Part shown: positions 24,264-60,282 of the stretch, piece after piece | How the letters are laid out: the number at the start of each line of letters is the position of its first letter | Numbering within the stretch: position 1 is the first letter of the stretch | Assembly (NCBI GenBank): GCA_963770595.1 | Contig: CAVYQG010000002.1 | Span: 155,866-219,865, forward strand | DNA: 64,000 nucleotides | Direction: 5' to 3' | Origin: an uncultured Actinomycetes bacterium | Lineage (GTDB): Bacteria > Actinomycetota > Thermoleophilia > Gaiellales > Gaiellaceae | Translations under genes and position numbers: made by a program | Notes under the pieces: model-generated | What the model was told of the DNA's origin: nothing | What the model saw: only the letters and a program-made list of their open reading frames with translations | The model's database searches: none

Positions 24264-27200
24264 GTGGCAATGGGTGCAGAGCGCCGGGCAGGCGATGACG
24301 AGCTCGAGATCAGGCTTCTCGGCCCGCTGGAGGCGCTGAGAGGCGGAAGCGCGGTCGCGCTCGGCGGCCAGAAGCCGCGGGCGCTTCTCGCGGCGCTCGC
24401 GCTGGACACCGGCCGCGTCGTCTCAGTGGACGCTCTGATCGAGGATCTGTGGCCGGGCGAGGCGCCGGAGACGGCCCCGCACGCCGTGCAGGTGTACGTG
24501 TCGCAGCTCCGCAAGGCGCTCGGGCCGGTCATCGCGACGCGCCCGCCCGGCTATGCGCTCGAGCTCGAGCGCGACCGGATCGACGTCCACCGCTTCCAGC
24601 GGCTGGGCGATGACGGCCGCGCCGCACTGAACGCCGGCAGCCCCGAGCTCGCCGAGGGCGCGCTCCGCGACGCTCTCGCGCTCTGGCGCGGCCCCGCGCT
24701 CGCCGACTTCCTGTACGAGCCGTTCGCGCAGAACGAGATCGCGCGGCTCGAGGAGCTCCGCACGGTCGTGCTCGAGGAGCGGATCGACGCCGACCTCGCC
24801 CTCGGCCGCCACGCCGAGCTCGTCTCCGAGCTCGAGGGCCTCGTCGCGCGCGCAGCCGCTGCGGGAGCGGCCGCGCGCGCAGCTCATGCTCGCGCTCTAT
24901 CGCTCCGGCCGGCAGGCAGATGCGCTGGCCGCGTACCGCACGGCGCGCGAGACTCTCGATCGAGGAGCTCGGCATCGACCCCGGCCCGGAGCTCCGCGAG
25001 CTCGAGGCCGCGATCCTGCGCCAGGACGAGTCGCTGCTCCTCCCCGAGACGGCGCCGGTCAAGCCCGCGATGCAGTTCCGCCGGCTCGTCACGATCCTCT
25101 TCGTCGACGTCGTCGAGTCGATGGCACTGGCGGAGGCGCTCGACCCGGAGGCGCTCGGACGCGTGCTCCAGAGCTACTTCGAGACCGTGTCTGCGGCGCT
25201 CACCCGGCATGGCGGGACGGTGGAGAAGTACGCGGGTGACGCCGTGATGGCCGCGTTCGGTATTCCCGTCTCGCACGAGGACGACGCGCTGCGCGCCGCA
25301 CGCGCTGCCCTCGACATCCGGGTCGGGATCGCGGCGCTCAACGAGCAGCTCGTGCAGAAGCACGGAGTCGGGCTCGAGATCAGCGTCGGGATCGAGGCCG
25401 GTGAGGTCGTCGCCACGCCGACCGACGCGCGGCAACGCCTCGTGACAGGCGAGGCCGTGGGGATCGCGGCGAAGCTCGAGCAGGCGGCCGCTGCGGACGA
25501 GATCGTCGTCGGCGCTCTGGCCGGCCGGCTGATCGACCACGTCGCGACGCTCGAGCCGCTCGGAGAGATCGCGATCAAGGGCAAGCGTGATCCGGTGACC
25601 GGCGTACCGGCTGGTCGAGTTGCGCCCCGTCGGGTCGGCCTTCGACGAGCGCCAGGACGCGCGACTCGTCGGCCGCAAACGCGAGCTCGCGACGCTGCGG
25701 AGGACACTCAAGCGCTCGGTCGACGGCGCGGCCGTCAGCGTCGCGGTCGTCGTCGGTCCGCCCGGAGTCGGCAAGTCGCGCCTCGCCGCGGAGCTCACCG
25801 GCCGCGCCAAGGGCGTCACGACGCTGTGGGGCCGCTGCCTCTCCTATGGCGAGGGCATCACGTACTGGCCGCTGCGCGAGGCGCTCGAGCAGGCGGGCGC
25901 GGGGGAAGAGCGTGACGCAGTCCTCGCGGCGCTCGACGCCGAGACGCCCCCGTCCGGCGCCCGAGACCGCGTGGCTCTTCCGCCGCTTCTGCGAGGCGAC
26001 CGCCGGCGAGAAGCCGCTCGTCCTCGTCCTCGACGACGTCCACTGGGCCGAGCCGACCTTTCTCGAACTCGTCGAGCACCTTACGGACAAGGGCGTGGGG
26101 CCGATCGCCGTGGTCTGCCTCGCGCGCGAGGAGCTCCTCGAGGACCGCCCCGCGTTCCTCGAGGGGCGCGTGAACGTCGATCGAATCGTGCTCGACGCGC
26201 TCTCTGCGGAGGACACCGACTCGCTCCTCGACGGCCTCGGCGGGACGGTCCTCGAGTCGGATCAACGCGTCCGCATCGTCGAGACCGCGGAGGGGAATCC
26301 GCTCTTCGTCGAGCAGCTCCTCGCGCTCGCGCTCGAGGGCGGCCTCGCCGAACGTCCGCTTCCTGCGACGATCCAGGCCCTGCTGGCGGCGCGCCTCGAC
26401 CGGCTCGGCCCCGGCGAGCGCGCGGTGCTCGAACGCGGATCGATCGTGCTCAGGAACTTCACCCTGGACGACGTCGCGGCGCTGGTCGAGCCCGAGGCCG
26501 CGCCGACCGTAGGGGCGCACCTCGATGCCCTCGTGGCTCGCGGCTTCCTGCGTCCCCTCGCGGACGATGCCTTCCGCTTCCGCCACGTCCTCGTCCAGGA
26601 GGCGGTCTATCGCGCCGCTCCGAAGCGGCTGCGGGCGGAGCTGCACGAGCGCTTCGCAGGCCGGCTGGACGCCGACGTGCCGGATCTCGCCGACCTCGAC
26701 GAGTTCGTCGGCTACCACCTCGAACGGGCGTATCGGCTGCGGGTCGAGCTGGGCGAGTCCGATCGGCGCGTACAGTCGCTGGCCGAGGACTCGGGCCGAC
26801 GGCTCGGCGCTGCGGGCTTCCGCGCGCTCAAGCGCGGAGACATGTCCGCGACGGTGAACTTGCTCGACCGCGCTGTTGACCTGCTTCCGCGCGGCGACGA
26901 GGCGCGTCACGAGCTCCTGTGCGAGCTCGGGATCGCGCGCGATGCCTCGGGCGACCTTGAACGTGGCACCGACGACTTTCTGGCCGCGATCGACGGCGCT
27001 CGGGCCGCAGGGCAACGGCGGGTCGAGCTTCGGGCTCGCATCGAGGCGGCATATGCGCGGCTCCTCGGCGAGCCAGAAGGAGCGGCACGGGATCTGCTCG
27101 TCCTGGCGAAGGACGCTGTCCCGACGTTCGAGGCACTCGGCGATGAGCGAGGGCTGGCGCGCGCGTGGCTCCTGATCGGTTACGTGCGCGGAGGGATTCA

Positions 27201-28032
27201 CGGAGACCATGCTGCGTGGGAGCAGGCGGAGGAGCGTGCGCTCGGCTACTACCGAAGCACTGGGTTCCCACCCGCGACGTGCATGCAGCAGATCGCTGCA
27301 GCCGTCTACTGGGGTCCGACTCCCGTGGCGCACGGGATCGAGAAGTGCTCGAACTTGCTCGAGGAGCACGCCGCTGGCCAGTTCGGACGCGCGGCGGTCA
27401 TACCGTTCCTCGGCGGGCTCCACGCACAGGCTGGCGACTTCACGGAGGCGCGCCTGCTCATAGACGAGGCAGCCGGGACACTCACCGATCTCGGCGCCGC
27501 TGCGACCGTGATGGTCTTCTGTGGAACCGTGCGAGCGGACGTCGAGCTACTCGCCGGCGAGCTCGAGGCCGCGGAGGCGACGCTGCGCGAGCAATGCGAG
27601 TTCTTCGAACGGATGCGGAATCGTGGCACCTTGGCGGTCAGAGCAGCGAAGCTCGCCGAGGCGCTCTACCGGCAGGGACGGCTCGAGGATGCCGAGCAAT
27701 GGGCAGACGTCGCCCGATCCAACACGTCGAGCGACGATCAGAGCGCTCTGCTGGTCCTCGGCCCCGTGGAAGCGAGGCTTCTTGCACGACGCGGCGAGCT
27801 CTCCGAGGCTCGCGACCTGGCCGAAGAGGCTGTGCGCCTCGCGGACCGCACCGACGGGCTGAATCTGATCGCCTTCGCGCGGCTTGCGCTTGCCGAGGTG
27901 CTCGGCGCAGCCGATCTCGTCGACGAGGCTCAGCGTACGATCGCGGAGGCGATCGATCTGTTCGAACGGAAGGGCAACGTTGTCGCGGCCTCGCAGGCTC
28001 GTGCGCTCCTGGGCGTCGAGGTCACCACATGA
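24264..28032 (+). CDS. Multidomain regulator: SARP wHTH + BTAD + class III adenylate/guanylate cyclase + AAA/STAND ATPase + TPR; four frame breaks (~24850, ~24956, ~25601, ~25958)
   Basis: The ATG at 24270 has a GAGGAG SD. wHTH: IRLLGPLEALRGGSAVALGGQKPRALLAALAL...VYVSQLRKAL. BTAD: ALALWRGPALADF...LMLALYRSGRQADALAAY...LGIDPGPELRELEAAIL. Cyclase: VTILFVDVVES...GGTVEKYAGDAVMAAFG. Walker A VVVGPPGVGKSRL; Walker B LVLVLDDVHWAE. Long helical repeat C-terminus. Confidence 0.8.
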
Positions 28033-31390: not shown

Positions 31391-33145
31391 GTGAGCGGAA
31401 CCCGCCTCGTTCAGGCAGTTCTCGCGACGACAGGCCTGATCCTCGGTGTCGTCGCGTACCAGAGTCAGGTCAACAATCTCGGCCTCTACACGACGCCTCT
31501 CCGGTCGTTCGCGATCGCCGCAGTGGGCTTGTCGTTCCTCGCCGCCGGCCTCGTGGCGTGGTCGCGGCGCTCGGACAATCGCATGGGGCCGCTGATGATC
31601 GCCGCCGGCTTCGCGCTGCTCCTGCGGCAGCTCCGGTACGGCCACGACCCGGCGGCATTCACGGTGTTCTTCGCGCTCGGAAACCTCGGCTACGCGCTCG
31701 TCGGGCACTCGGTGCTCGCGTATCCGTCGGGGCGCGTCACGGATCGGTACGAGCGGGCACTTGTCCGCGTCGGCTACGCGACGGTGCTCGCGTTCCCGCT
31801 GGCCGTGCTGCTCTTCGTCGACGCGGTGCAGCCGCTCGACGAGTTCCCGACGCCGCGTCGGAGCGCACTGTCCATCTTCGCCGAGGCCGGCGTCGTCGAC
31901 GCGCTCCAGAAGGCGTTCGTGATCGTGTTCTACGGCGTCCTGGCCACGCTCTTCATCGCGCTCGTCGCCCGCCGGCTGGTGCGCGCGACGCGGCGTGAGC
32001 GGCGGATCCTCGCCCCGCTCCTGCTCTTCGCGATCGCGCTCGCGCTCCGGGCAGTGTACGAGTGCGTGTCGACCTTCGTCGACCAGCGACTCGCCTACGA
32101 CTACCTCTTCTGGTGGCAGATCATCGGTTTCATCGCTCTCCCGCTGGCGCTGCTGGCGGGCCTGCTGCGTGCCCGGCTCGCCCGCGTGCACGTGGGCGAG
32201 CTCGTCGTGCATCTCGAGCAGACCCCGGTCGAGGGGATTCGCGACGAGCTCGCCGAGGCGCTCGACGACGAGACCCTCGCGCTGGGCCTCTGGCTTCCGG
32301 AGCGTGGCGAGTACGTCGATGCCGGCGGGCGCGCGCTGGTCGTGCCGGACGACGGCCCGACCAGGGCCGTGACCTGGATCGAGCACGAAGGCGAGCCACT
32401 CGCTGTCCTCGTCCACGATCCCTCGCTGCGCGAGGAGCCGAGGCTCGTCGAGGCTGTTGCCGCGGCGGCCCGTTTCGCGCTCGTGAACGCGCGTCTCCAC
32501 GCCGAGGTGCGTGCACAGCTCGAGACGGTGAAGGAGTCCCGGGCACGGATCGCCACCGCTGCCGACACCGAGCGGCGGCGCATCGAGCGCGACTTGCACG
32601 ACGGTGCGCAGCAGCGGCTCGTCGCGCTCGCGCTCGAGCTCCGGAGCGCGCAGCGCGGGCTCGGCGAGGGCGCGGACCCCGAGCTCGACCTTCTCCTCGC
32701 GTCCACCGCCGACGAGCTCCACGTCGCCGTCGAGGAGCTGCGCTCGCTTGCGCACGGCATTCATCCGGGCGCGCTGACGCAGGCCGGGCTGGCCTCTGCG
32801 CTCGAAGCGCTGGCGGCGCGGGCTCCCATTCCGGTCGCGGTCGATGCGACGACGGAGCGCTTCCCGCCCGAGGTCGAGGTGACCGCCTACTTCGTCGCGA
32901 GCGAAGCGCTGACGAACGTCGTCAAGCATGCGCAGGCGTCGAAGGCCGCCGTCCGCGCCAGCCGTGAGGCCGCGACGCTCGTCATCGAGGTCTCCGACGA
33001 CGGCGTGGGCGGCGCGGCCGCCGACAACGGCTCCGGGCTGCACGGTCTCGCCGACCGCGTCGAGGCGCAAGGCGGTCGGCTCTCGGTCGACAGCGCACGG
33101 GGAGCGGGCACGCGCGTCCGAGGGGAGATTCCGTGCGCGTCGTGA
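31391..33145 (+). CDS. Sensor histidine kinase (HisKA_3 / NarX-DesK type) with polytopic N-terminal sensor
   Basis: Multiple TM helices. ERRRIERDLHDGAQQRLVAL (H box). HATPase motifs SDDGVGG...GSGLHGLADRVEAQGGRL. GACGAT lies 6 nt before the GTG. Confidence 0.88.
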   Translation: MSGTRLVQAVLATTGLILGVVAYQSQVNNLGLYTTPLRSFAIAAVGLSFLAAGLVAWSRRSDNRMGPLMIAAGFALLLRQLRYGHDPAAFTVFFALGNLGYALVGHSVLAYPSGRVTDRYERALVRVGYATVLAFPLAVLLFVDAVQPLDEFPTPRRSALSIFAEAGVVDALQKAFVIVFYGVLATLFIALVARRLVRATRRERRILAPLLLFAIALALRAVYECVSTFVDQRLAYDYLFWWQIIGFIALPLALLAGLLRARLARVHVGELVVHLEQTPVEGIRDELAEALDDETLALGLWLPERGEYVDAGGRALVVPDDGPTRAVTWIEHEGEPLAVLVHDPSLREEPRLVEAVAAAARFALVNARLHAEVRAQLETVKESRARIATAADTERRRIERDLHDGAQQRLVALALELRSAQRGLGEGADPELDLLLASTADELHVAVEELRSLAHGIHPGALTQAGLASALEALAARAPIPVAVDATTERFPPEVEVTAYFVASEALTNVVKHAQASKAAVRASREAATLVIEVSDDGVGGAAADNGSGLHGLADRVEAQGGRLSVDSARGAGTRVRGEIPCAS

Positions 33146-33777
33146 TCGCCGAGGACTCGGTGCTGCTGCGCGAGGGCCTCGCACGGGTGCTCGCCGAGGG
33201 CGGCTTCGAGGTAATCGCTCAGGCGGCGAACGCGGACGAACTCAAGAAGGCAGTGCGCCGCTTCAAGCCGGACGTCGCCGTGGTGGACGTGCGCATGCCC
33301 CCGACGCAGACGGACGAGGGCGCGCAGGCGGCGGTCGAGATCCGCGCCGAGCAGCCCGACGTGGCGGTGCTCCTCCTCTCGCAGGTCGTGGAGGCGACAC
33401 ATGCGCTCGCGCTCGTCAGCGAGAAGCCGGAGGGGTTCGGCTACCTGCTCAAGGACCGCGTGCTCGAGATCGACGACTTCCTCGACGCCGTCTGGCGCGT
33501 GGGAAAGGGCGGGACCGCCATCGACCCGGTGGTCATCGGACAGCTCATCGGTCGCCGTCGGGAGGACGACCCGCTCGACGAGCTGACGGCCCGTGAGCGC
33601 GAGGTGCTCGAGCTCATGGCGCAGGGGCTGTCCAACAAGGGCATCTGCGAGAAGCTCTTCGTGAGCCCGAAGACCGTCGAGACGCACGTGGGCTCGATCT
33701 TCGGGAAGCTCGGTCTCCTGCCGGCACAGGACGAGCACCGCCGCGTGCTGGCGGTGCTCGCATTCCTGCGTTCCTAG
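33133..33777 (+). CDS. Response regulator, NarL/LuxR family
   Basis: REC domain VVIAEDSVLLREG...DVAVVDVRMPP. LuxR HTH LTAREREVLELMAQGLSNKGICEKLFVSPKTVETHV. Overlaps the kinase gene end. Confidence 0.92.
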   Translation: MRVVIAEDSVLLREGLARVLAEGGFEVIAQAANADELKKAVRRFKPDVAVVDVRMPPTQTDEGAQAAVEIRAEQPDVAVLLLSQVVEATHALALVSEKPEGFGYLLKDRVLEIDDFLDAVWRVGKGGTAIDPVVIGQLIGRRREDDPLDELTAREREVLELMAQGLSNKGICEKLFVSPKTVETHVGSIFGKLGLLPAQDEHRRVLAVLAFLRS

Positions 33778-34012: not shown

Positions 34013-35038
34013 TCACGGCCGTCCGCCTTCGTTCTGGACGCTGAAGCCGAGCCGGCCGACGTCCCGGTTCCCGGCCGTGTCGCTCGCCACCACGACCAGC
34101 TCGTAGTCGCCGTTACGGAGCGCGCTCGTGTCGAAAGTGGAAAGCCTGAACAGGTACCGGCCGGTGAGGAAGCGCTCCTTGCGTCCGGAGAAGACGGGCC
34201 AGTTCTGGTGCGTGCCGCGCGCGAACGTCGTCCAGAAGCCGTCGTTCTTCGGCACGACGCGGCGAACGTCGCGCGCTATCCGCCGACCGACGACGACGCG
34301 CCCCGAGGCGTCCTCGATGCTCCACGCGACGAGTGCCGGGGTGACCGGGAAGCCGTGCCAGCGCCCGGGGACGGGCAGCGCGGGCATGTCGATCGCCTCG
34401 GCCGCGAGGACGACCCGGCCCCGCACGTGCTCCGCTCCGCCCGCGCCGCGAATCGAGACTCCGACGACCTGCGGGACGGTCGAGTCGCGGTACGGCGTCA
34501 GGCGTCCGGAAGCGAGCGGGCTCACGGCGCGATTTCGCTCGAGGTGCGTCAGGTGCACGTGCTCGCGCTTCTGCTGGACGAAGCCGAGGAGGGTCTTGCC
34601 GGCGACGGCGTGCTGTCCCACCCGCGCTGCCGGATCGATGTGCCAGTACTGGAACGAGCGTCCGTTCCCGCAGTCCACGGTAACGCGGCCGCCGCGCGCC
34701 CGGACGACCGTGCCCGAGCTGACGGCGTAGACGGGCGACCCGTCGGGCGCCGAGATGTCGAGGCCCTGGTGGAACGAGAAGCCGCCCCGGCCCTGGAGGA
34801 TCGTTCGCTCCGAGCGCTCACCACGGAACACCGTGCGGGGATCGCCGAACGAGCCCCTGATCGGGTGCGCGCGGTCGAACGGCTTGACGGGCCAGCCGTA
34901 GGCGCCGGTGCAGCCGGTGCCCGTCGAGACCGCCAGTGCGGAGGTCGCGACGGCGAGGCCGAGGAGCGCGATCAGGACGGCGAGCGCGGTCGATGCGACG
35001 AGGGCTCTTGCGGTTGAGGTGGTGCGTGCGGTAGCCAT
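34013..35038 (-). CDS. Secreted M23 family metallopeptidase (paralog 1)
   Basis: Signal MATARTTSTARALVASTALAVLIALLGLAVATSALA. FHQGLDISAP (HxxxD) and EHVHLTH (HxH) motifs. Conserved C-terminal extension shared with paralog 2. Confidence 0.8.
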   Translation of the reverse strand: MATARTTSTARALVASTALAVLIALLGLAVATSALAVSTGTGCTGAYGWPVKPFDRAHPIRGSFGDPRTVFRGERSERTILQGRGGFSFHQGLDISAPDGSPVYAVSSGTVVRARGGRVTVDCGNGRSFQYWHIDPAARVGQHAVAGKTLLGFVQQKREHVHLTHLERNRAVSPLASGRLTPYRDSTVPQVVGVSIRGAGGAEHVRGRVVLAAEAIDMPALPVPGRWHGFPVTPALVAWSIEDASGRVVVGRRIARDVRRVVPKNDGFWTTFARGTHQNWPVFSGRKERFLTGRYLFRLSTFDTSALRNGDYELVVVASDTAGNRDVGRLGFSVQNEGGRP

Positions 35039-35045
35039 GGCCCGC

Positions 35046-35099
35046 ACGCTCGGAGGGGCCCCAAACCGGCCGGCAACCGCCCCCTAACCGCTCGCTAAC
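35046..35099 (-). promoter_or_regulatory. Type II phased-heptad promoter (GTTAGCG / GTTAGGG / GTTGCCG / GTTTGGG -N8- GAGCGT)
   Basis: Heptads at 35093-99, 35082-88, 35071-77 and 35060-66 (11-bp phase). Hexamer at 35046-51, 7 nt before ATG 35038. Confidence 0.55.
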
Positions 35100-35115: not shown

Positions 35116-36102
35116 TCAGCGCCCCAGCACGAGCGGAACCCGCCGGGTCGCGGTGTTTCCCCGCGTGTCGCGCACGGAGACCTCGACGAGGTACGCGCCC
35201 CCGCGGAAGCGGGCGACATCGCGGCTGAGGACGACCCTGTACCGGCCCGGTGCCCGGACGTGGTTCTGACTCGTCCCGGGCGCCCACACGTCGTCGAAGG
35301 CCGAGGCGGGCGGGATCGTGAGCCTGACGTCGAGGGCGGTGCTCCAGTCGGAAACCGGCCGGCGCTTCGCGTCGAGCAGGCGCCAGCGGACGAGCGCGGG
35401 CATGACCGGGAGGTCGTGCCACGGCCTCGGAACCGCGAGCGGCGTCTCGTCGTACGCCTCGGCGACCAGGTGCCTGCCGTCGGTGGCGACCGATCCGACG
35501 GTCGGCCTCGTTCGGTCGACGTACGGGCCCAGTGCGCCCGCTCGGAGCGGGTTCAGGTAGCGGCCGTGGCGCATCTCCGAGAAGTGCACGTGCGCGTACG
35601 GGGCCTCGATGTGACCGATCAGGGTCCTGTACGCGACCACCCGCTGGCCGGTCCTCACGGTCGGGACGACGTGCCAGTAGCTGAACTCGGCCCCGTCCGG
35701 CCCGGAGATCAGGACGGTCGTGTCGTGGAGCGGGTGGATCGACGCGGTGCCGGTCAGCGTTGCGTACACGGGCGTCGCGTTCGGCGCGGAGATGTCGACG
35801 CCGAAGTGGAACTGCCTCGACTGCTGGTGGTTCGAGATGCGCGGGTCGCCGAAGAAGCCCCGGACGGGGTGCTGTGCGCGGAACGGCTTGACGGGCCAGG
35901 CGTATGCGTACGGAGCGGCGCTCGCACTCCGCGCCAGGCGTGGAGCTGCGGGGCGGTCGTGCGGTGCGGCGAGCAGGCCCGCTCCCACCGCAGTCTGCGT
36001 GGGCACGAGTTGCGCGGCCATCAGGACGGCGCCCGCGGTGGCGACCGCGGCGCCGGTGAGAACGATCGGCCGAGACGTGAGACGTACGCGTGGAGTCGTC
36101 AT
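35116..36102 (-). CDS. Secreted M23 family metallopeptidase (paralog 2)
   Basis: Start at ATG 36102 (MTTPRVRLTSRPIVLTGAAVATAGAVLMAA). FHFGVDISAP and AHVHFSE motifs. Collinear with paralog 1 throughout. Confidence 0.8.
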   Translation of the reverse strand: MTTPRVRLTSRPIVLTGAAVATAGAVLMAAQLVPTQTAVGAGLLAAPHDRPAAPRLARSASAAPYAYAWPVKPFRAQHPVRGFFGDPRISNHQQSRQFHFGVDISAPNATPVYATLTGTASIHPLHDTTVLISGPDGAEFSYWHVVPTVRTGQRVVAYRTLIGHIEAPYAHVHFSEMRHGRYLNPLRAGALGPYVDRTRPTVGSVATDGRHLVAEAYDETPLAVPRPWHDLPVMPALVRWRLLDAKRRPVSDWSTALDVRLTIPPASAFDDVWAPGTSQNHVRAPGRYRVVLSRDVARFRGGAYLVEVSVRDTRGNTATRRVPLVLGR

Positions 36103-36109
36103 GCCCGGC

Positions 36110-36163
36110 ACGGTCGGAGGGGGCTCCAACCGGCCGGCAATGGCCGACTAACCGGGGGCTAAC
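36110..36163 (-). promoter_or_regulatory. Type II phased-heptad promoter (GTTAGCC / GTTAGTC / ATTGCCG / GTTGGAG -N8- GACCGT)
   Basis: Heptads at 36157-63, 36146-52, 36135-41 and 36124-30. Hexamer at 36110-15, 7 nt before ATG 36102. Confidence 0.55.
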
Positions 36164-36192
36164 GGCCTCCGCCGGTCGGCCGTCCGGACGTC

Positions 36193-36224
36193 TTGAGCAC
36201 GCGTTGAGGGCGGGAGGCTTCGAT
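36193..36224 (+). promoter_or_regulatory. Type I heptad-repeat promoter on the plus strand (TTGAGCA-N4-TTGAGGG-N8-TTCGAT) upstream of the SARP-SIR2 gene
   Basis: Heptads at 36193-99 and 36204-10, an 8-nt gap, hexamer at 36219-24. Same geometry as the five minus-strand type I sites. Confidence 0.5.
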
Positions 36225-36291: not shown

Positions 36292-37920
36292 GTGTCAGTT
36301 GTGACGTACGAGTTCAGGATCCTCGGTCCCCTCGAGGTCTCGGGTGAGACCGGTCCCGTCGCGCTCGGAGGGCAGCGGCAACGCGCGCTCCTCGCGGCGC
36401 TCCTGATCGAGGCCGGCCGCGTCGTGCCGACTGAGCGCCTCGTCGACCTCCTGTGGGGCGAGGCCGCGCCGAGGACCGCGACGACGTCGCTCCAGAACTC
36501 GATCTCACGGTTGCGGCGCGAGCTCGGCGCAGACCTCCTCGAGACGCGTGCGCCCGGCTACGTACTCCGCGTCGACCCGCAGCAGGTGGACGCGCATCGC
36601 TTCGAACGGCTTCTGCGCGACGCGCGCGGCTCGGAGGCCGCCGCGCGGCGCGAGACGCTGCGCGAGGCTCTCGCGCTCTGGCGAGGCCCCGCCCTCGCCG
36701 AGTTCGCCTTCGAGCCGTTCGCGCAGGCGGAGATCCGCCGGCTCGAGGAGCTCCGGCTCGTCGCGCTCGAGGAGCGGATCGATGCCGACCTCGAGCTGGG
36801 CCGCCACGAGCGACGTCGTGGGCGAGCTCGAGGCACTCGTCGGCGAGCATCCGCTGCGGGAGACCTTCAGACGGCAGCAGATGCTCGCGCTCTACCGATC
36901 GGGCCGCCAGGCGGAGGCGCTCGACGCGTACCAGGACGCTCGCTCCCGCTTCGTCGAGGAGCTCGGCATCGAGCCCGGGCCGGAGCTCAAGCGTCTCCAG
37001 GCGGAGATCCTCGGCAGGAGGCGGGAATCGCCGCGCCCGGCGCGACCTCGCCCGACGACCGACGACGAAGCCGAGATCGTGGCGGCGCTCCTCGCCGGCC
37101 GGGTCGTGCCCGTGCTCGGGCTCGACGGCGTCGGCGACCTCGCCGCGCACCTCGCGTCGGCGTTCTCCGTCCCCGACGACCGGCCGGTCGACCTCGCGCG
37201 CGTCTCGCAGTACGTCGCGACGATGCAGGGCTCGGGGCCGCTGTACGACGAGCTGCACGCGCTCTTCGAGGCCGCCACCGAGCCGAGCGCGCTGCACCGC
37301 TTCCTCGCCCAGCTGCCCGCGCTCCTCCGCGAGCGTGGCGCGCCGCACCAGCTCATCGTGAGCACGAACTACGACCTCGCGCTCGAGCGGGCGTTCGAGG
37401 ACGCGGACGAGGAGCTCGACATCGTCACGTACGTCGCCAGCGGTCCGCATCGCGGTCGCTTCTGGCATCGGCCGCCCGGCGAGCCGCCGCGCCCGATCGA
37501 CGTTCCCAACACGTACGCGACGGAGCTCTCGCTCGAGCAGCGGACGATCCTGCTCAAGCTCCACGGTGCCGTCGACCCGCTCCCCGAGCGCGAGTGGGAG
37601 AGCTTCGTCATCACCGAGGACGACTACATCGACTACCTCGGGCAGCTCCGAGCTGGCGGCAGTCGTCCCCGTGTCGCTGGCCGCCAAGCTGCGGCGCAGC
37701 CACTTCCTCTTCCTCGGCTACGAGATGGCCGACTGGAACCTGCGCCTGATCCTCAACCGCCTCTGGGGGGAGCGGCCGATCGCGCTATCGCTCGTGGGCG
37801 GTGCAGAGCTCGCCGAGCCCGCTCGCGCAGGCGTTCTGGCGCCGATACGACGTGACGCCGCTCGACGTCGAGCCCGAGGCGTACGTCGCGCTGCTCGGAC
37901 GGAGGCTGGAGGCGGCATGA
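36292..37920 (+). CDS. SARP wHTH + BTAD + SIR2-like (SIR2_2 type) domain protein; three frame breaks (~36808, ~37645, ~37790)
   Basis: wHTH: FRILGPLEVSGETGPVALGGQRQRALLAALL. BTAD: ALALWRGPALAEF...QMLALYRSGRQAEALDAY...LGIEPGPELKRLQAEIL. SIR2-like: GRVVPVLG, HQLIVSTNYDLALERAF, ILLKLHGAV, FVITEDDYIDY, HFLFLGYEMADWNLRLIL. Ends ...LGRRLEAA with TGA 37918-37920. Confidence 0.75.
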
Positions 37921-40900
37921 GCGCCGACGCGCCGTTCGCCCGTACAAGGGCCTGAGCGCGTTCGAGGACTCGGAGGTCGACGCGCTCCTCTTCTTCGGCC
38001 GCGAGCGCGAGCGGGAGATCGTGGTCGCGAACCTGATCGCCTCGCGGCTGACGGTCCTGTACGGACCGAGCGGCGTCGGCAAGTCGTCGCTGCTCCGCGC
38101 GGCGGTCGCGCGCTCGCTGCGTGAGCTCCCCGAGCAGCCGCTCGTCGTCGTCTTCTCGCGCTGGAGCGACGATCCGGCCGCCGCGCTCGCCGAGACCGTT
38201 GCCGAGGCCGGTCGGAGGGGGGACGAACGGCACGGCTGCCGAGGCGCTCGCGCGAGCACAGGTCGACCGCGACGTCTACCTCGTGCTCGACCAGGCGGAG
38301 GAGTACTTCCTCTACCACGCCGACGACGGTGGCATCGGCTCGTTCGCGGAGGCGCTGCCGGCGCTGCTCGCGGCGCCGCGCCGCGTCAACGTCCTCGTCT
38401 CGCTGCGCGAGGACTCGCTCGCGAAGCTCGACCGCTTCACGGGCCGGATTCCCGGGCTCTTCGCCAACACCTCCGCCTCGACCGCCTCGACCGCGACTCG
38501 GCGCAGCGCGGCGATCGTGCGGCCCGCTCGAGCGCTTCGCCGAGCTGACGGGTGACGACGTCACGGTCGAGCCGGCGCTCGTCGAGCGGGTGCTCGACGA
38601 GGTCGGCGCGGGCCAGATCGAGCCTCGCGCTCGGCGGGCTCGGAGCCGTCGAGGGCGCCGAGCGACGCGGCGCGGATCGAGGCGCCGTACCTCCAGCTCG
38701 TCATGCAGCGGATCTGGGAGGAGGAGCGAGCGGCCGGCTCGGACGTGCTCGCGGCTCGAGACGCTCGAGCGGCTCGGCGGCGGCGCAGCGCATCGTCGAG
38801 GAGCACCTCGACGGGCGCTCTCGACGAGCTGTCGCCCGCGCAGCAAGGACGTCGCCGCGCGCCTGTTCAACCACCTCGTGACGCCGTCGGGAACGAAGAT
38901 CGCGCACGAGGTCTCGGACCTCGCCGACTTCGGCGGCGTTCGCCGTGGACGAGGTCAAGCCGGTGCTCGCGAGTCGCTCGCCGAGCGGCGGATCCTGCGC
39001 TCGCGTCGAGGAGGGCGGCGGGGTCCGGTACGAGATCTTCCACGACGTGCTCGCGGAGCCGTGCTCGCCTGGCGCGTCGAGCGCACGAGGCCGAGCGCGA
39101 CCTCGAGCTGCAGAAGCGCGACTCCGACCGTCGGCATCGGCGCTTGCTCGGCGTCATCGCCGTCGGGGCGGTGCTTCTCGCGACGATGGGCGCGATAACG
39201 GCGTTCGCGCTCACGCAGCGCTCCGAGGCCAGGAACCAGGCGCGCGCGTCGAAGGCGAACGAGCTCGTGGCGGTGTCCGGCGCCGAGCGCGCTCGCGACC
39301 CGGAGCTCAGCCTCGCTCTCGCGCTCGAGGCGTCCCGCCTCGATCCGAGCGAGAGCTCCGAGCAGGCGCTGCGCCAGGCGCTCAACCAGTCGCGCATGCG
39401 AGGCGTCGTGGACCTCGGTGAGCCGGTGGTGGGCGCAGCTCCGCTCGGGCGCCTCGTTCTGGGTGTCTCCGAGAGCGGGGAGCTCGTGGAGGCGAATCCG
39501 GCCACCGGCGAGATCCTGGGGCGCGTGGACACGGGCAGCCCGGCCGCCGATGTGTCGTTCTCGACCGACGGGACGCCGCTCGTCACGGGCCGAGACGGCA
39601 GCGTGCTGCTGGTCCGGGGAGGCGACGCGATCGCCGTCCCCGGGGTCACGGAGGCTCGAGCGGCGTCGATCTCGCCCGACGGCAGCCTCGCGGCGGTCGT
39701 CGAGCCTCGCGGCGTGCGGCTCGTCGACGTCGAGTCCGGCTCGGTGCTCGAGTCGTACGACCATCCAGGCGCGATCTCGGCGGCCGTGTCGTACGACAAC
39801 CGGCGGGTGGCGACGGGAGGGGCGGACGATCAGGTTCACATCTGGTCGGGTCAGAGCGGTCGCCGCGTCCACACGCTCACCGAGCACGACGGGAACGCGG
39901 TCGCGCTCGAGTTCAGCCCTGACGGCGCCCGTGTCGCGACCGCCTCGAGCGACGGCGTCGGCCGGCTCTTCCGTACCGCCGACTGGGGCCTCTCGTCCGT
40001 CGTCACCGGCCACACGCACTCGTTGCGGGACATCGCGTTCAGCTCCGACAGCGAGCACGTCGTCACCGCGGGCGAGGACGGGACGGCGCAGGTCTTTCAC
40101 GTAGACACCGGAGACCAGCTCGTCGTCCTCGCGGGCAGCGACGACTGGGTGATGTCCGCGGCCTTCGCAGGCGGGGTCGGGAGCCCGATCGTCACGGCAG
40201 GCCGGGACGGGACGATCCGCGTCTGGGATTCCGTCTTCCAGCCGGAGCTTGAGCTGCTCACCGAGCTTCCGAGCGCGGTGGTGTACGTCGAGTTCGACGA
40301 CGACGGCCGGCTTCGCGCGACGACGGACGTCGGGCGCGCACACATCCTCGACCCGGCTACCGGCGAGGTCCTGGAGGTCGTGCGGGGCGCGAAGCCGAGA
40401 CGCGACCAGGGACCGAGCGGGGAGGTCGCGACGATCCGCGGAAAGACGGTCGTCCTCCGGACGGGGTCGGGCACCCGGACGCTCGAAGGGCATCGCGACC
40501 GCGTCACGGGCGTCGACTTTTCCCCGGACGGTGCGCTGCTCGTCACGTCGAGCAGGGACAGCGACGCTCGCATCTGGAGGGTCGCCGACGGCGAGTCGAT
40601 CCAGGCTCTGCAGCACAACACGGCCGTGCACGACGCCCGGTTCAGCCCGGACGGGAAGTGGGTCGTCACGGCTGCGTTTCGCGGCAGCCTGTGGGACGTG
40701 AGTGACGGCTCCAACCTCTTGCGCCTGCAGGGCCACGACGGGACGCTCACGACCGCGACCTTCGACCCCACGGGACACACGGTGTTCACGGGCGGGGTCG
40801 ACGGCACCGTGCGGACCTACGAGTGCGGGCTATGCGGCGGCCTCGACGAGCTCGTCTCGCTGGCGGAGGCGCGCCTGGCTGCCACCCGCCGCGGCCTGAC

Positions 40901-40931
40901 GCCGGACGAGCGCGAGCGGTATCTCCGCTAG
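37917..40931 (+). CDS. nSTAND-like P-loop NTPase + TM helix + WD40 repeat protein; about 17 frame breaks between 37932 and 39080, none afterwards
   Basis: ATGA overlap with the upstream stop. RPYKGLSAFEDSEVDALLFFGREREREIV. Walker A LYGPSGVGKSSLL; Walker B VYLVLDQAEEYF. PYLQLVMQRIWEEE. TM LLGVIAVGAVLLATMGAITAFAL. WD40 blades (HDGNAVALEFSPDGARVATASSDGVGRLF, GHTHSLRDIAFSSDSEHVVTAGEDGTAQVF, GHRDRVTGVDFSPDGALLVTSSRDSDARIW, GHDGTLTTATFDPTGHTVFTGGVDGTVRTY). Confidence 0.8.
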
Positions 40932-41653
40932 CGCCGGCAGTGGGTGCGAGGCAGGAGCCCTAGCGCGCACAGCTCGGGCTGCGGCGCCCGGATCGCGAAC
41001 GCGCTCCTGAGCTCCCGCGTGAACCAGACGTGCAGCATCTCGCTCGCGCCCTGCTGGAGGCGGGCGCCGGGCGGGCAGCGTCCACCGGCGAGCGGCTTCA
41101 GGCCGCGCTTCGCACCGTGCTTGCACACGATGTGCGAATGCCAGCGCATGATCGGGCCGGCGGGGGTCGGGCCGAGCTCGCCGTCGCGCGTGCTCCACAT
41201 GGCGCCGACGAGGACGAGCGGCCGCCCGCGCGCGTTGGCGTAGATGAGCGCCTTGGGCCGCGTCGGGTCCAGGATTCCCGCGCGCCGCGGCTCCTGGTGC
41301 CGTTCCGCGTGGAAGAAGTCGACCCTGGTCGCGCCCAGGCGCCTGGGGGCCGTCCGCGTGTCGTAGCCGGCACGCCTCGCCGCCTGGACGCTCCTCCAGT
41401 TCCCGCGGTCGGCGGCGGAGACGAGCTGTTCGAGTATCGACCTCGCGCGGGCTCGCTGGCGCGAGGTCGCGAGCCGGACTTGTGGGTACTGCGGCAGGTG
41501 GTCGACCAGCCCACGCCGCGCGGTGGCAGGAAGGAGGTCGGCGCCCTGCGGTGGCTTGCAGACGAGGATGGGAGGCGCAGCGGTTCCCGCCTCGCCGGCC
41601 GACACCAGCGCGACGGCCAGGATCGCGACGATGCCGACGCGAGCGCTCGTCAT
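40928..41653 (-). CDS. Secreted hypothetical protein
   Basis: Start MTSARVGIVAILAVALVSAGEAG at 41653. Ordinary composition with several Cys/His. Last gene of the PD40/DMF-like operon. Its stop overlaps the WD40 gene stop (CTAG at 40928-40931). Confidence 0.6.
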   Translation of the reverse strand: MTSARVGIVAILAVALVSAGEAGTAAPPILVCKPPQGADLLPATARRGLVDHLPQYPQVRLATSRQRARARSILEQLVSAADRGNWRSVQAARRAGYDTRTAPRRLGATRVDFFHAERHQEPRRAGILDPTRPKALIYANARGRPLVLVGAMWSTRDGELGPTPAGPIMRWHSHIVCKHGAKRGLKPLAGGRCPPGARLQQGASEMLHVWFTRELRSAFAIRAPQPELCALGLLPRTHCRR

Positions 41654-41688
41654 GTGCGCGATCCTAGTGCCGTAGCGCACGAGTCGCA

Positions 41689-43022
41689 TCACCGTGCCAG
41701 CCGCGCCCACAGGTTCTCCAGCATCCGCCAGACGACGGGGTCCGACGTGATCGAGCGGGTGAGGTGGAACGCGCCCGCGGCGAACACGTTCGCACCTTCG
41801 CTCGTGCGGTAGAAGGTCATCTGCGCGGTCTGACCCGGGCCGAAGAGGTCCGGGATCTCTGCGACGACCTGCACGTTCGCCGGCGACTCGGGTGCGACCT
41901 CGTCGATCTCGACGCCGCCGCGCGCGAACCGCGAGCCCGCGTGCAGCCCGGTTCCCGCGAAGATCCATCTGCTCGCCGCGGTCCGCCGGACGACCCAGGC
42001 CGCACGTGGCGAGCGCTGGTGCGCGAAGTACTGGACGCCGACGAGGGCAGCTTCGGGCCGGCGGACGGCGCGCCAGCGGTTCTTCTTCACCATGGCGTCG
42101 TCCTCCCGTTCGACGCGCCAGAAGAAGTTGTTCGCCGACAGGAACATGAGGTTGCCACCGAGATCGCGGTAGCCCTCGACGAGGTCGTACTCGTGCTCCG
42201 TCACGTACTCGTGGTGGCCGGCGAACACGATCAGGTCGTAGGCGCGGGCGAGCGTGGAGGCGCTTCCGACCTGCTCGAGGTCCCACTGCGAGAGGTAGTC
42301 GACCTCCTTCCCGGTCCAGTGCGAGCCAGTTCAGGAAGCCGAGGTGGTAGCGGAACCCGTACGGCACGCCCCGGTCGAGGTGCGCCCGACCCAGTCGGAC
42401 GGTTTCGAGGAACTTGCTCGCGTACCACGAGTCCGGCTGCCCGTCGCCGTCGTCGTCCCGGAAGTTGTACGCCTGCCACGTCAGGGTCGGGAGGACGACC
42501 GCGACGCGGCGCTCGCCGACTCGCTGCGGTGCCACCACGAACGGTGCGAAGCCGATGCGCCCGTCCGGCGCCGTCAGCCGGGCGAAGTAGAGCCCACTCT
42601 CCCAGTCCCCGACTCTGAGGGTCAAGGTGCGACGCCCGCCGACCGTCCTGATCGTCCGCCTCGACGTGACGGCGACGCCCTTCATGACGCCCTCGGTCCG
42701 GGTCGCGACCCGCTCGGGCCCCGCCTGGAAGATCCGGATCGTCAGCCGGGGTGACGGATCGTCGATCACGAGCCGCGCCCGCTGACCGGGGCGATAGCTC
42801 TCGTGCTGGTAGGCGGCCTCGACCGCGGGGACGAGCCGTCCGGACACCTTCGGAGTCGCGTCCCTCGACCGGATGCTCCGAGACCGAGGTTGCCGCGACG
42901 ACGAGCACGCCTGCGGCTGCGCCGACGACAATCGCTCGAGCGGTGATCGCTCGCTGGACCACGCCCGCAACGTAAGCGAACTTGCCCAGGGCGCGCTCGA
43001 CGACGGAGGACGCGGATGACAT
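41689..43022 (-). CDS. N,N-dimethylformamidase large-subunit-like (DUF-type amidotransferase-like) protein, membrane-anchored; two frame breaks (~42855, ~42330)
   Basis: N-terminal anchor AIVVGAAAGVLVVAA, then YRPGQRARLVIDD...GLYFARL...VVLPTLTWQAYNF...HWTGKEVDYLSQWDLE...IVFAGHHEYVTEHEYD...NLMFLSANNFFW. I recognise this as the DMFase-beta-like family. Confidence 0.55.
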
Positions 43023-44029: not shown

Positions 44030-46042
44030 ATGGCTCGCGCCTTCCGCACCACCGACGAGTACGCGCCGATGGGCGACCAGGCGCGCGCGATCGAGGAGAT
44101 CGCCGCCTCCGTCGCGGCCGGGAACCGCTTCCAGACGCTCCTCGGCGCGACCGGTACCGGCAAGACCGCCACGATGGCGTGGACGATCGAGAAGCTCCAG
44201 CGGCCAGCGCTCGTCATCGCGCACAACAAGACGCTCGCCGCGCAGCTCTGCAACGAGTTCCGCGAGTTCTTCCCCGAGAACGCCGTCGAGTACTTCGTCT
44301 CGTACTACGACTACTACCAGCCCGAGGCGTACGTCCCGCAGGCCGACCTCTACATCGAGAAGGACTCGTCCCAGAACGACGACATCGCGCGGCTCCGGCT
44401 GTCGGCGACCTCGTCGCTGATGACGCGGCGCGACGTCGTCGTGGTCGCCTCGGTCTCGTGCATCTACGGCCTCGGCTCGCCCGAGGAGTGGCGCGAGCGC
44501 GTGCTCATCCTCGAGGTGGGGGAGGAGCACGACCGCGACGCCGTGCTGCGGAAGCTCGTCGAGAGCCAGTACGTCCGCAACGACACCGTGCTCGGCCGGG
44601 GCCGGTTCCGGGTCAAGGGCGACATCGTGGAGGTGCAGCCGGCGAACGTCGAGACCGCCTACCGCGTCTCGTTCTTCGGGGACGAGGTGGAGCAGATCAC
44701 GCATTTCAACCCGCTCTCGGGCGAGGTGTACGCGCGCCTCGACAACCTCGTCGTCTGGCCCGCGACCGAGTACGTGACCTCGACGCCGACGATCGAGCGT
44801 GCGATCGACGAGATCCGCGCCGAGCTCGAGGAGCAGGTCGCGAAGTTCGAGGCCGACGGGCGGATGCTCGAGGCCCACCGCATCCGCCAGCGCACCGAGT
44901 ACGACATGGAGATGCTCAAGGAGCTCGGGTTCACGAGCGGGATCGAGAACTACTCGCGCGTCCTCGAAGGGCGAGCGCCCGGCACGCACCCGTTCACGCT
45001 CATCGACTACTTCCCGGACGACCTCGTCGTCTTCGTCGACGAGTCGCACCAGACGGTGCCGCAGCTCGGCGGCATGTACGAGGGCGACCGCTCGCGGAAG
45101 CAGACGCTCGTCGACTACGGCTTCCGGCTCCCGTCCGCGCTCGACAACCGGCCGCTCCGCTTCGACGAGTTCCTCGGCAAGGTGGACCAGCTCGTCTTCG
45201 TGTCCGCGACGCCGGGCGCGTTCGAGCTATCGCGCTCGAAGGTGATCGCGGAGCAGCTCATCCGTCCCACCGGGATCGTCGACCCCGAGATGGAGCTTCG
45301 CCCGACGCGCAACCAGATCGACGACCTGCTCAACGAGATCCGCCATCGCGAGGAGGCGGGCGAGCGGACGCTCGTCACGACGCTGACGAAGAAGATGGCC
45401 GAGGACCTGACCGACTACCTCCTCGAAGCAGGAGTTCGCGCGCGCTACCTCCACTCCGAGATCGACACGCTCGACCGCATCGCGATCATCCGCGAGCTCC
45501 GGCTCGGCGAGTACGACGTCCTCGTCGGGGTCAACCTCCTGCGCGAGGGGCTCGACCTGCCCGAGGTCTCGCTCGTCGCCGTCCTCGACGCCGACAAGGA
45601 GGGCTTCCTGCGCGGGAAGACGGCGCTCGTGCAGACGACCGGCCGCGCGGCCCGCAACGTGAACGGGAAGGTGCTGCTCTACGCGGACAAGCGCACGGAG
45701 GCGATCAACGGCGCGCTCGAGGAGACCAACCGCCGCCGCGCCTACCAGCTCGCCTACAACGAGGAGCACGGGATCGTGCCCGAGACGATCGTGAAGGGCG
45801 TCTCCGACATCGCCGAGCTGCTCGCGCTCGAGTCACCGCACGTGCCGAAGTCGCGCCGACGGCGCGGGAAGGCCGAGGTCGAGGGCATGTCGCGCGACGA
45901 GCTCGAGAAGCTCGTCGTCACGCTCGAGGAGGAGATGTACCTCGCCGCCGAGGAGCTCCGGTTCGAGTACGCCGCGAAGCTGCGCGACGAGATCAAGGAG
46001 CTGCGGCGCGAGCTGAACGCGTTCGCGGAGACGTCCTCCTGA
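44030..46042 (+). CDS. uvrB: Excinuclease ABC subunit B
   Basis: [10 protein letters not shown], Walker [20 protein letters not shown]-terminal UVR domain [18 protein letters not shown]. 670 aa uninterrupted. TACGCT lies 6 nt before the ATG. Confidence 0.96.
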
Positions 46043-57776: not shown

Positions 57777-58222
57777 GTGCGCGTGACGGTGGCGTCGGCC
57801 TCGGCGGAGGAGACCGAGGCCGTCGCCGGACGGCTCGCCGCTCGGGCTCCGGCCGGGCGACGTCGTCACGGTGTCGGGCGAGCTCGGGACGGGGAAGACG
57901 ACCTTCGTCCGCGGCGCGTGCCGCGCGCTCGGCGTCTCCGGCCCGGTCACGAGCCCGACGTTCACGATCGGCCATCGCTACACGGGCGCGGTCGACGTCT
58001 CGCACCTCGACCTCTATCGCTTCACGGGCGTCTCGGCCGCCGAGTGGGGCGATCTCGAGCCGTACTTCGACGACGCGATCGTCTTCGTCGAGTGGCCCGA
58101 GGCGGGGGTCGGCGTGCTCCCGGCGCCACGTGCCGCGGTCCGGCTGGACGCATGCCGGCGGAGATCGCCGCCGGATCGAGCTCGCGGCCGACGAGAGCGC
58201 GCTGCTAGAAGGCATCGACTGA
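57777..58222 (+). CDS. tsaE: tRNA t6A biosynthesis ATPase TsaE; two frame breaks (~57845, ~58150)
   Basis: GDVVTVSGELGTGKTTFVRG...SPTFTIGHRY...HLDLYRF. Operon with tsaB-rimI-tsaD. Confidence 0.8.
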
Positions 58223-59306: not shown

Positions 59307-60282
59307 CTCCTCTGATCCTCGGGATCGAGACCTCGTGCGACGAGACTGCCGCGGCCGTCGTCACGGACGGAGGGCGACGTGCTCTCGTCCGTCGTCTCGT
59401 CGCAGGCGGACCTGCACGCGCGCTACGGCGGCGTCGTGCCCGAGATCGCGTCACGACGCCATCTCGAGCTCGTGTCCCCGGTCGTGCGCGAGTCGCTGGC
59501 CGGGGCGGGCGCGACGCTGGACGACGTCGAGAGCGTCGCCGTGACGCAGGGCCCGGGCCTCGTCGGCGCGCTGCTCGTCGGGATCTCGGTCGGCAAGGCG
59601 ATCGCCTGGGCGCGCAGAAGCCGCTCGTCCCCGTCGACCACCTCGAGGGCCACGTCGCGTCGCTCTACCTCGGGCGACGATCCGCTCGAGCCTCCGTTCG
59701 TGTGCCTCCTCGCGAGCGGCGGCCACACGCTGCTGCTCGCCGTCCGCGAGCGCGGGAGCTCCGAGCGGCTCGGCACGACCCTGGACGACGCGGCCGGCGA
59801 GGCCTTCGACAAGGGCGCGCGGCTGCTCGGGCTCGGCTATCCGGGCGGCGCGGCGATCGACGCGCTCGCGCAGGACGGCGACCCCGGCGCGTTCGACGTT
59901 CCCGGTGGCGCGCGTCCCCGGTCTCGACTTCTCGTTCTCCGGGCTGAAGACGGCGCTCCTGTACACGGTGCGCGACCTCGGCGAGGACGAGGCTCGCGCG
60001 GCGGAGGGCCGACCTCGCGGCCTCGTACCAGCACGCGATCGTGCGCGCGCTCGCGGAGCGGGCGCGGCAGGCGTCGGAGGAGACCGGCCTCGGGACGATC
60101 GCGGTCGTCGGCGGCGTCGCGGCGAACTCCTCGCTGCGCGCGGCGCTGCCCGACGCCGCGCTTCGCGCCGCTCGCGTACTGCACGGACAATGCCGCGATG
60201 ATCGCGTCCGCCGCGCGGTTCACGCCTGCCGATCCCGTATCCCGGCTACCTCGCGCTCGACGCGTATGCCTCGCTCTCGTAG
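59303..60282 (+). CDS. tsaD: tRNA N6-adenosine threonylcarbamoyltransferase TsaD; seven frame breaks
   Basis: [111 protein letters not shown]. Fragments alternate between frames. Confidence 0.9.

Follow-up and report, generated by a model that had tools for sequence, protein, structure and literature searches.

A conserved SIR2-nSTAND1 gene pair with a SARP head in a Gaiellaceae genome, tentatively read as a transmembrane STAND receptor coupled to a transcriptional regulator

The 64,000-nucleotide stretch of contig CAVYQG010000002.1 analyzed here (hereafter, the window), from an uncultured bacterium of the Gaiellaceae, carries two overlapping genes on the + strand. Gene 1 (36301..37920) encodes a SARP, i.e., a winged helix followed by a BTAD domain, fused to a SIR2_2-type domain; gene 2 (37917..40931) encodes an nSTAND1 NTPase followed by a single transmembrane (TM) helix and a β-propeller. 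The two genes form a real, conserved, and widespread unit. Our tentatively favored interpretation is that gene 2 specifies a STAND receptor spanning the membrane, that the SIR2-like domain links this receptor to the SARP regulator of gene 1, and that the pair derives from a SIR2-STAND conflict module. It should be noted that we infer function, including membrane topology, physical interaction, DNA binding, and the direction of signaling, from sequence, predicted structure, and comparative genomics.

The first line of evidence is the persistence of the pair. A scan of one genome per species returned at least 430 loci with this type of SIR2 domain; the best 80 were fetched, giving 84 SIR2 genes, and annotated with hidden Markov models (HMMs) built in this analysis. 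An nSTAND1 gene comes next, on the same strand, after 82 of the 84 SIR2 genes, at a distance of −2 to +145 nt, or 548 nt in one case. One of the two unpaired genes lies at a contig end, and the other (in locus L046) is a genuine orphan. Paired loci span Actinomycetota, Acidobacteriota, Gemmatimonadota (Gemmatimonadales), Chloroflexota, Deltaproteobacteria, and Verrucomicrobiota. An earlier description of the window, made from the letters alone (the sequence-only reading), had treated the two genes as one module, and their adjacency in related genomes of six phyla or more agrees with that treatment. The closest fetched locus shares 84% DNA identity with the window over the pair and 90% over uvrB, while at the distant end the cultured Nonomuraea gerenzanensis and a single relative on a viral contig keep the pair with 30–34% identity in SIR2. 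The N. gerenzanensis copy (L085, 6920-8706; NZ_LT559118.1, 7.49 Mb region) is a SIR2-nSTAND1 pair without a SARP head, at 34% SIR2 identity.

The second line of evidence comes from gene fusions. The SIR2 part of gene 1 (approximately residues 250–541) belongs to a SIR2_2 subfamily of its own, for which an exhaustive search found 681 clusters (50% identity) at E≤1e-30. Most members are stand-alone proteins of approximately 320–340 residues. In others, the SIR2 domain sits at the C-terminus of a SARP-BTAD, protein kinase, HTH_31, CHAT-TPR, or nSTAND1-HEAT head. The nSTAND1-HEAT-SIR2 fusions are P0140, P0158, P0170, and P0181; the fusions to protein kinase, HTH_31, and CHAT-TPR are found among P0127, P0133, P0143, and P0152, and P0110, a close ortholog of gene 1, carries a Ser/Thr kinase in front of SARP-BTAD-SIR2. 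Adjacency and these fusions, taken together, argue strongly that SIR2 and nSTAND1 are linked functionally and probably also physically. The SIR2 domain is the part that co-evolves with nSTAND1 and that is fused to it in some lineages. We place at the origin of the family a headless SIR2 gene paired with nSTAND1(TM), a putative conflict or signaling module still present in many phyla.

Several individual loci deserve mention here. In one Thermoleophilia metagenome-assembled genome (MAG; locus L048) the whole module is tandemly duplicated (3-5644 and 7227-12087), and in both copies the catalytic His is replaced by Arg and the catalytic Asn is not kept. In three Acidobacteriota loci, headless pairs are preceded by a Ser/Thr kinase gene on the opposite strand (L058 1435-2205, L070 6975-7745, and L072 6770-7540, all −); in L070 and L072 the kinase gene is directly upstream of the pair, echoing the kinase-SIR2 fusions. 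A Gaiellaceae MAG (L066, 5754-8684) encodes a headless SIR2 whose partner is nSTAND1-TM-WD40-CARDB. Since L066 is such a headless copy in this family, headed (core) and headless copies can coexist in Gaiellaceae.

Both genes of the window were reconstructed by three-frame translation and by frameshift-aware protein-to-DNA alignment against the intact ortholog P0031. Repaired gene 1 is 541 residues long if read from the start of the longest open reading frame at 36292, as the sequence-only reading had it, and approximately 538 residues if read from GTG 36301; the latter start, the one used by the orthologs, is the likely one. The best 120 homologs listed for gene 1 are full-length matches at 80–86% identity, mostly of 537–565 residues. 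All features of the protein are encoded on the + strand. Pfam models match the repaired product in the order that had been proposed: an OmpR-type winged helix (Trans_reg_C; 36373..36564, residues 28–91, E=1.9e-9), a BTAD domain (36586..37010, residues 99–240, E=4.2e-47), and a SIR2-like domain (37054..37917; SIR2_2 at residues 354–522, E=1.4e-20). Every motif quoted earlier for gene 1 was also found. STNYD (37361-37375) holds the Asn at 37367-37369, and KLHG (37556-37567) holds the His at 37562-37564; by motif reading and alignment, these catalytic residues are present and line up with TNYD and K[LFV]HG of SeThsA, KomC, and DSR2. ITEDDY (37610-37627) and FLFLGYEMADWN (37704-37739) complete the motifs read in the domain. 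The β1 loop, within 37097-37130, reads VLGLDG, with GxD in place of GxG.

The state of this active site bears directly on an alternative explanation, namely, that the pair serves in immunity or abortive infection by depleting NAD+. Gene 2 would then sense an invader, oligomerize, and switch on the SIR2 NADase of gene 1, and the SARP part would do no more than autoregulate expression or tether the effector to DNA. We consider this rather unlikely, for all that the fold speaks in its favor. An AlphaFold2 (AF2) model of the SIR2 domain of an ortholog (predicted local distance difference test, pLDDT, 88.5) has KomC, ThsA, and DSR2 as its top Foldseek matches (TM score 0.62–0.67), together with Avs5, SPARSA-SIR2, and SIR2-HerA; E for these six ranges from 6e-12 to 1e-6, and canonical deacylase sirtuins score far lower (Sirt5, TM score 0.41, E=7e-5). 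Moreover, Asn and His are retained in the window, in its subclade, and in all 23 headless relatives; CHAT-TPR, protein kinase, and nSTAND1, to which members of this SIR2 subfamily are fused, are all typical partners in conflict systems; the sensor evolves rapidly and is swapped between lineages; the L048 module is duplicated in tandem; and nSTAND1 was defined within predicted counter-invader systems (PMC8195603).

Against a dedicated NADase stands the erosion of catalytic signatures in the SARP-headed clade. Asn is kept in only 28 of 54 SARP-headed members (the remaining 26 have S, R, A, or G) vs 23/23 headless ones, and His in 49 of 54 vs 23/23. The glycine loop, scored after extending the HMM fragments upstream to take in β1, remains GxG in 5/47 headed as opposed to 16/18 headless members; it is GAG in the solved NADases KomC and SeThsA. 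In 38 of the 47 headed members, gene 1 among them, the loop is G-x-Asp/Glu; another loop, of approximately 25 residues, is deleted as well. The rest of the headed SIR2 domain stays highly conserved. This suggests that, after fusion to the SARP head, selection no longer maintained NAD chemistry everywhere but did maintain the fold, as would be expected of a coupling domain. Also unfavorable to the immune explanation are the predicted position of the sensor outside the membrane, as compared with the cytoplasmic sensors of characterized Avs-type systems, the core-like, syntenic, vertically inherited position without defense neighbors, the lack of any PADLOC system match (its only hit being a 75-residue match to the ThsA core), and the near-absence of the module from viral and plasmid collections. 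Thus, the effector-plus-STAND-sensor module envisaged in the sequence-only reading stands in part: the pair is conserved, is fused elsewhere, and has a fold nearest KomC, ThsA, DSR2, and Avs5, but the GxD loop, the loss of Asn in half of the headed lineages, the sensor predicted to lie outside the cytoplasm, and the core synteny do not suit it. Since Asn and His are kept, NAD+ cleavage may persist in the window's own subclade, where we regard NAD activity as possible if somewhat doubtful.

In another alternative, the SIR2 domain would be a regulatory enzyme that deacylates or ADP-ribosylates some target, such as the SARP head or the NTPase, or else a sensor that binds an NAD-derived ligand; either way, transcription would be tied to NAD status. 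The family does belong to the SIR2 superfamily, the domain is 85–97% conserved even where catalytic residues drift, and the kinase, HTH_31, and SARP fusions suggest signaling. However, its structural neighbors are NADases rather than deacylases, as the Sirt5 score indicates, NAD binding requires the GxG loop, which is changed here, and a gene for a substrate is not evident nearby. We judge this alternative to be very unlikely. It should be added that the rival explanations overlap one another.

Gene 2 supplies the third line of evidence. Its ATG overlaps the TGA of gene 1 in ATGA (37917-37920), as had been seen before, and the repaired product has 1002 residues. Pfam nSTAND1 (PF20703) matches residues 9–390 (E=2.6e-47; profile positions 1–354 of 379), and WD40 also matches (E=1.4e-43), so the earlier assignment to nSTAND-like NTPases with Walker A and B motifs is upheld. 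The NTPase module (37940..39090, +) contains the motifs PYKGL...FFGRERE (37940-38011), Walker A GPSGVGKSS (38063-38089), and Walker B VYLVLDQAEE (38274-38303), all on the + strand. The one TM helix mentioned in the sequence-only reading is found at 39144..39212 (+) as a hydropathy-predicted segment of 23 residues, LLGVIAVGAVLLATMGAITAFAL, preceded by RRHRR. The WD40-type β-propeller region (39405..40800, +), predicted to be extracytoplasmic, has approximately 10–12 repeat units, more than the eight or so blades counted earlier. The C-terminal tail (40818..40928, +) is 70% identical to that of the ortholog in L002. At this end of the predicted extracytoplasmic propeller, a CxxC motif, YECGLCGG (40818-40841), precedes a conserved C-terminal helix, LTPDERERYL; the motif is kept in the ortholog of L002 and might form a disulfide or bind a metal.

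The TM helix is a general feature of the partner proteins. In 66 of 67 nSTAND1 partners, from all phyla, a hydrophobic helix of 19–23 residues with an Arg-rich N-flank directly follows the NTPase; with a 19-residue Kyte-Doolittle mean as the criterion, these helices score 2.07–2.96. The nSTAND1-HEAT-SIR2 fusions were checked for such a helix and have none. Because the ATPase must be cytoplasmic and the helix is single, the C-terminal domain should lie outside the cell, and we predict that the sensor propeller of gene 2 is extracytoplasmic. The regions beyond the helix are swapped by lineage (WD40, WD40+CARDB, TPR, P/T-rich linkers, and unknown folds), a variety that fits an exposed sensor. The propeller is also the fastest-evolving part of the locus, with 51% identity between the window and the L002 ortholog compared with 78% for the NTPase. 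Among the Gaiellaceae loci, identities run at 85–99% for uvrB, 85–97% for SIR2, 59–95% for SARP, 66–79% for the NTPase, and mostly 32–57% for the ectodomain. Between L001 and L002 the ectodomain DNA cannot be aligned, while the flanks are 78–82% identical. These two loci had been considered as near-identical genomes with very different receptors, a notion that is ruled out by an 8% difference in uvrB DNA; hence, the gradient of divergence is relative and not allelic.

These observations also admit an outside-in, NLR-like receptor whose hypervariable propeller would read ligands outside the cell or in its envelope (for example, an adsorbing phage, molecules of competitors, or markers of kin) and which would signal via the SIR2 protein, with NAD+ cleavage and SARP-driven transcription from the 11-bp heptad arrays as the joint output in Gaiellaceae. 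We hold this version to be unlikely.

The fourth line of evidence concerns the SARP head and its promoters. The head is present in 58 of the 84 SIR2 genes, exclusively in Actinomycetota loci; 24 genes are headless and 2 are cut by contig ends. Judging from this distribution, the head appears to be a lineage-specific acquisition of the Thermoleophilia/Gaiellaceae. Upstream of gene 1, TTGAGCA and TTGAGGG (36193..36210, +), spaced 11 nt start to start, form a pair of SARP-box-like heptads, and a −10-like hexamer, TTCGAT (36219..36224, +), follows 8 nt downstream of the 3′ heptad. According to the SARP-box rule (PMC10936776), direct repeats are spaced by 11 or 22 bp, and 8 bp separate the 3′ repeat from the −10 element; the putative promoter of the window, TTGAGCA-N4-TTGAGGG-N8-TTCGAT, fits this geometry. 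A pattern search for TTGAGNN-N4-TTGAGNN with one mismatch allowed retrieved the window and 17 of 23 close orthologous loci (L001-L028), in which the intergenic DNA is otherwise poorly conserved. TCTCAT, TCTGAT, TCGAAT, or TGTCAT stands at the same 8-nt distance from the heptad in the orthologs. The SARP-style heptad promoter claimed earlier at 36193-36224 is thus present, and its layout recurs in those 17 loci.

Further upstream, in the intergenic region that separates gene 1 from a divergent M23 peptidase gene, four CTAACGG-like heptads (CAACCGG, CAATGGC, CTAACCG, and CTAACGG; 36127..36165, +) were read at 10–11-nt spacing. Most SARP-headed homologs, even those with approximately 50–60% SIR2 identity, are preceded by similar arrays of three to four units spaced by 11 nt. 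When promoter sets from the same loci were compared by offset self-similarity, an offset of 11 was the best in 32 of 54 SARP-headed promoters, in 1 of 23 headless ones, and in 4 of 35 uvrB promoters, and only 0.4% of shuffles attained the observed median of the 11-nt periodicity. The sequence-only reading had offered, as its second option, a transcription factor whose output is gated; because the 11-bp-phased repeats are specific to the SARP-headed promoters, it is this option that gains support.

Taken together, the observations lead us to the coupled receptor-regulator arrangement stated at the outset, which would resemble a split, membrane-anchored AfsR. The nSTAND1 ATPase of gene 2 would be cytoplasmic, with its propeller outside and gene 1 as its cytoplasmic partner. 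A ligand bound to the outer propeller would induce nucleotide-dependent oligomerization of the NTPase, and this would cluster the SARP-SIR2 protomers; clustering would in turn favor cooperative binding of SARP dimers at the tandem heptads, activating the operon and possibly also the divergent M23 peptidase genes. The SIR2 domain of the SARP-headed clade would then serve mainly for coupling.

A number of points weigh against this arrangement. WD40 propellers are usually cytoplasmic, and the topology is predicted only from hydropathy and from the obligate cytoplasmic position of the ATPase. The hypervariability of the sensor is more in keeping with an arms race than with a housekeeping signal. 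The window's subclade keeps Asn, His, ITEDDY, and LFLGY..DWN, and its fold is nearest to NADases. As for the promoter, TTCGAT would be a weak match to TANNNT if it is a −10 element, and the heptad arrays (36127-36210) could equally be bound not by gene 1 but by a second, large SARP encoded in the window (24270-28032, +), a wHTH-BTAD-guanylate cyclase-AAA_16-TPR protein orthologous to a 1251-residue protein of L002. The gene for this large SARP precedes the module in many of the related loci. Finally, all the locus counts given here refer to related genomes and not to independent events.

Both genes of the pair are interrupted in the assembly, which raises the question of whether they are dead pseudogenes in this genome, the frameshifts being real. 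The sequence-only reading reported three frame breaks in gene 1 and left those of gene 2 unmentioned. We found five in gene 1, at approximately 36808 (+1), 37011 (−1), 37057 (+1), 37646 (+1), and 37785 (+1), including one compensating pair, and 16 single-base breaks in gene 2, all within 37936-39077 and none in 39080-40931; one of them sits between the ATG and the PYKGL motif. This makes 21 single-base indels in 36808-39077, compared with none in the 2 kb of uvrB (44030-46042), and it is this concentration that would speak for decay. However, the breaks are patchy across the window. The frame of tsaD (59370-60330) switches at least five times in approximately 1 kb, the 57–63 kb region, with tsaE (57871-58150), is broken too, the large SARP gene has at least four breaks, and the DMFA2_C gene (40937-42862) has two, while the frames of uvrB and the M23 genes are intact. 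In gene 2, the breaks end abruptly at 39080, even though constraint is weakest in the propeller that follows. Of the 21 breaks, 15 are +1 insertions outside homopolymers. Moreover, the broken segments are 78–91% identical to intact orthologs at the amino acid level, the same as the intact orthologs are to one another, and similar split genes are seen in the closest relatives, which are soil MAG contigs from long reads. Because the essential tsaD is broken likewise, we read the breaks as assembly errors; they probably reflect patchy, local assembly or polishing error rather than gene decay. The break pattern, the broken tsaD, and the preserved amino acid identity lead us to reject pseudogenization as the main explanation, and we give it hardly any credence.

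The surroundings of the pair, scanned between 24 and 48 kb of the window, resemble a core region. Two M23 peptidase genes (34013-35047 and 35116-36129, both −; Pfam) are divergent from gene 1 and are possible co-regulated targets. Just upstream of them are genes for a histidine kinase (HisKA_3) and for a response regulator of the LuxR type (31391-33777, +). The other neighbors are the large SARP-cyclase-AAA_16-TPR gene, an FAD oxidase, DMFA2_C, a PD40 protein, the intact uvrB, DUF2277, and an M32 peptidase. The M23-module-uvrB synteny is kept in most SARP-headed loci, down to approximately 50% SIR2 identity, and most of the actinobacterial loci have an M23 gene upstream of the module. No recognizable defense gene was found in this 24–48 kb interval, and no biosynthetic cluster was apparent in it. 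The sequence-only reading had suggested running defense-system models, and PADLOC assigned neither protein to a system: for gene 1 the only match was the 75-residue ThsA core at residues 416–490, and for gene 2 there were only P-loop-level matches with E of 0.001 or weaker. Viral and plasmid collections yielded one distant viral match and one match on an 11.85-Mb replicon, NZ_LT559118.1, filed as a "plasmid" in PLSDB with almost no annotation. By these signs, the headed module appears to behave as a vertically inherited core locus and not as a mobile defense island.

A full-text literature search found no paper on this architecture, in agreement with the earlier statement that no described system has it; neither a BTAD-SIR2 protein nor a SIR2 + nSTAND1(TM) pair was described in the texts searched. 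The Domainator paper came up as a candidate and was set aside, as it matched through its reference list only. Each of the closest systems shares some features with the locus. AfsR-type large SARPs, such as AfsR of S. coelicolor, likewise have a SARP head tied functionally to a STAND NTPase and its repeat sensor, and the promoters likewise have direct repeats spaced by 11 bp, the 3′ one lying 8 bp from the −10 element (PMC10936776). However, they combine SARP, a NOD/NB-ARC STAND ATPase, and TPR in one polypeptide, whereas in the window the ATPase is a separate nSTAND1 protein with a TM helix and a propeller in place of TPR, and a SIR2-like domain follows the SARP head. Analogously, Avs5 (AVAST type 5) has a SIR2 of the same structural class (Foldseek 9jap, 9nc9), a STAND module, and a variable C-terminal sensor, but there all parts belong to a single cytoplasmic protein, with SIR2 at the N-terminus; the window locus consists of two genes, its nSTAND1 has a TM helix, neither product matches a PADLOC Avs model, and the NAD loop of gene 1 is altered.

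With ThsA, DSR2, and KomC (Kongming), gene 1 shares the SIR2_2-type fold, the TNYD Asn, the KxHG His, and the LFLGY..D motif, but it lacks SLOG and has neither a DSR2-type nor a KomB partner, and its loop is GLD instead of GAG. In Thoeris, a ThsA with a SLOG or TM sensor is accompanied by a TIR gene, ThsB; the locus has no TIR gene among the neighbors scanned, and its PADLOC ThsA match covers only residues 416–490. In the kinase-controlled pairs EmbR-PknH and AfsK-AfsR, a SARP is placed under a Ser/Thr kinase that sits in the membrane and has its sensor domain outside. By analogy, in the window too a single-pass membrane sensor enzyme may act on the C-terminal accessory domain of a cytoplasmic SARP and so control it, and kinases recur in the SIR2 family as fusions (P0110, P0127) and as neighbors (L058, L070, L072); here, however, the transducer is a STAND NTPase rather than a kinase, and the accessory domain is SIR2-like rather than FHA. 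Fungal NLRs of the HET-E/NWD type are cytoplasmic and have hypervariable WD40 sensors. They resemble the window locus in having a STAND NTPase, a fast-diverging WD40 sensor, and a conserved effector side, and differ from it in that the window receptor is predicted to span the membrane.

Lastly, there are the nSTAND1 conflict systems with effector-associated adaptor domains (Kaur, Iyer, Burroughs, Aravind 2021; PMC8195603). As far as the matching passages of that paper go, these have in common with the window locus the PF20703 NTPase, the repeat sensor, and a neighboring gene of the effector type, and those passages mention no SIR2 partner of nSTAND1, no SARP head, and no post-NTPase TM helix. 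Each closest system thus has defining features that the locus misses: the latter is not a single polypeptide, does not belong to the NB-ARC or Avs clade, and lacks SLOG or TIR as well as the GxG loop.

SIR2-STAND immunity and SARP-STAND regulation, as in AfsR, are each known; the window locus joins both and adds what appears to be a membrane-spanning topology. For the headless SIR2-nSTAND1(TM) pair, which is present in at least 430 genomes, counted one per species, of soil phyla, we found no described function in the literature, and the presence of the pair in the cultured N. gerenzanensis makes experiments feasible. If the sensor is truly extracytoplasmic, bacterial sensing of the STAND/NLR type would extend beyond the cytoplasm; if the dual output is true, the locus would encode an immune receptor of the STAND type that both crosses the membrane and acts directly on transcription. 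The SARP-headed clade itself looks like a natural experiment in domestication, in which an effector loses its catalytic signatures and gains a DNA-binding head together with cognate repeats.

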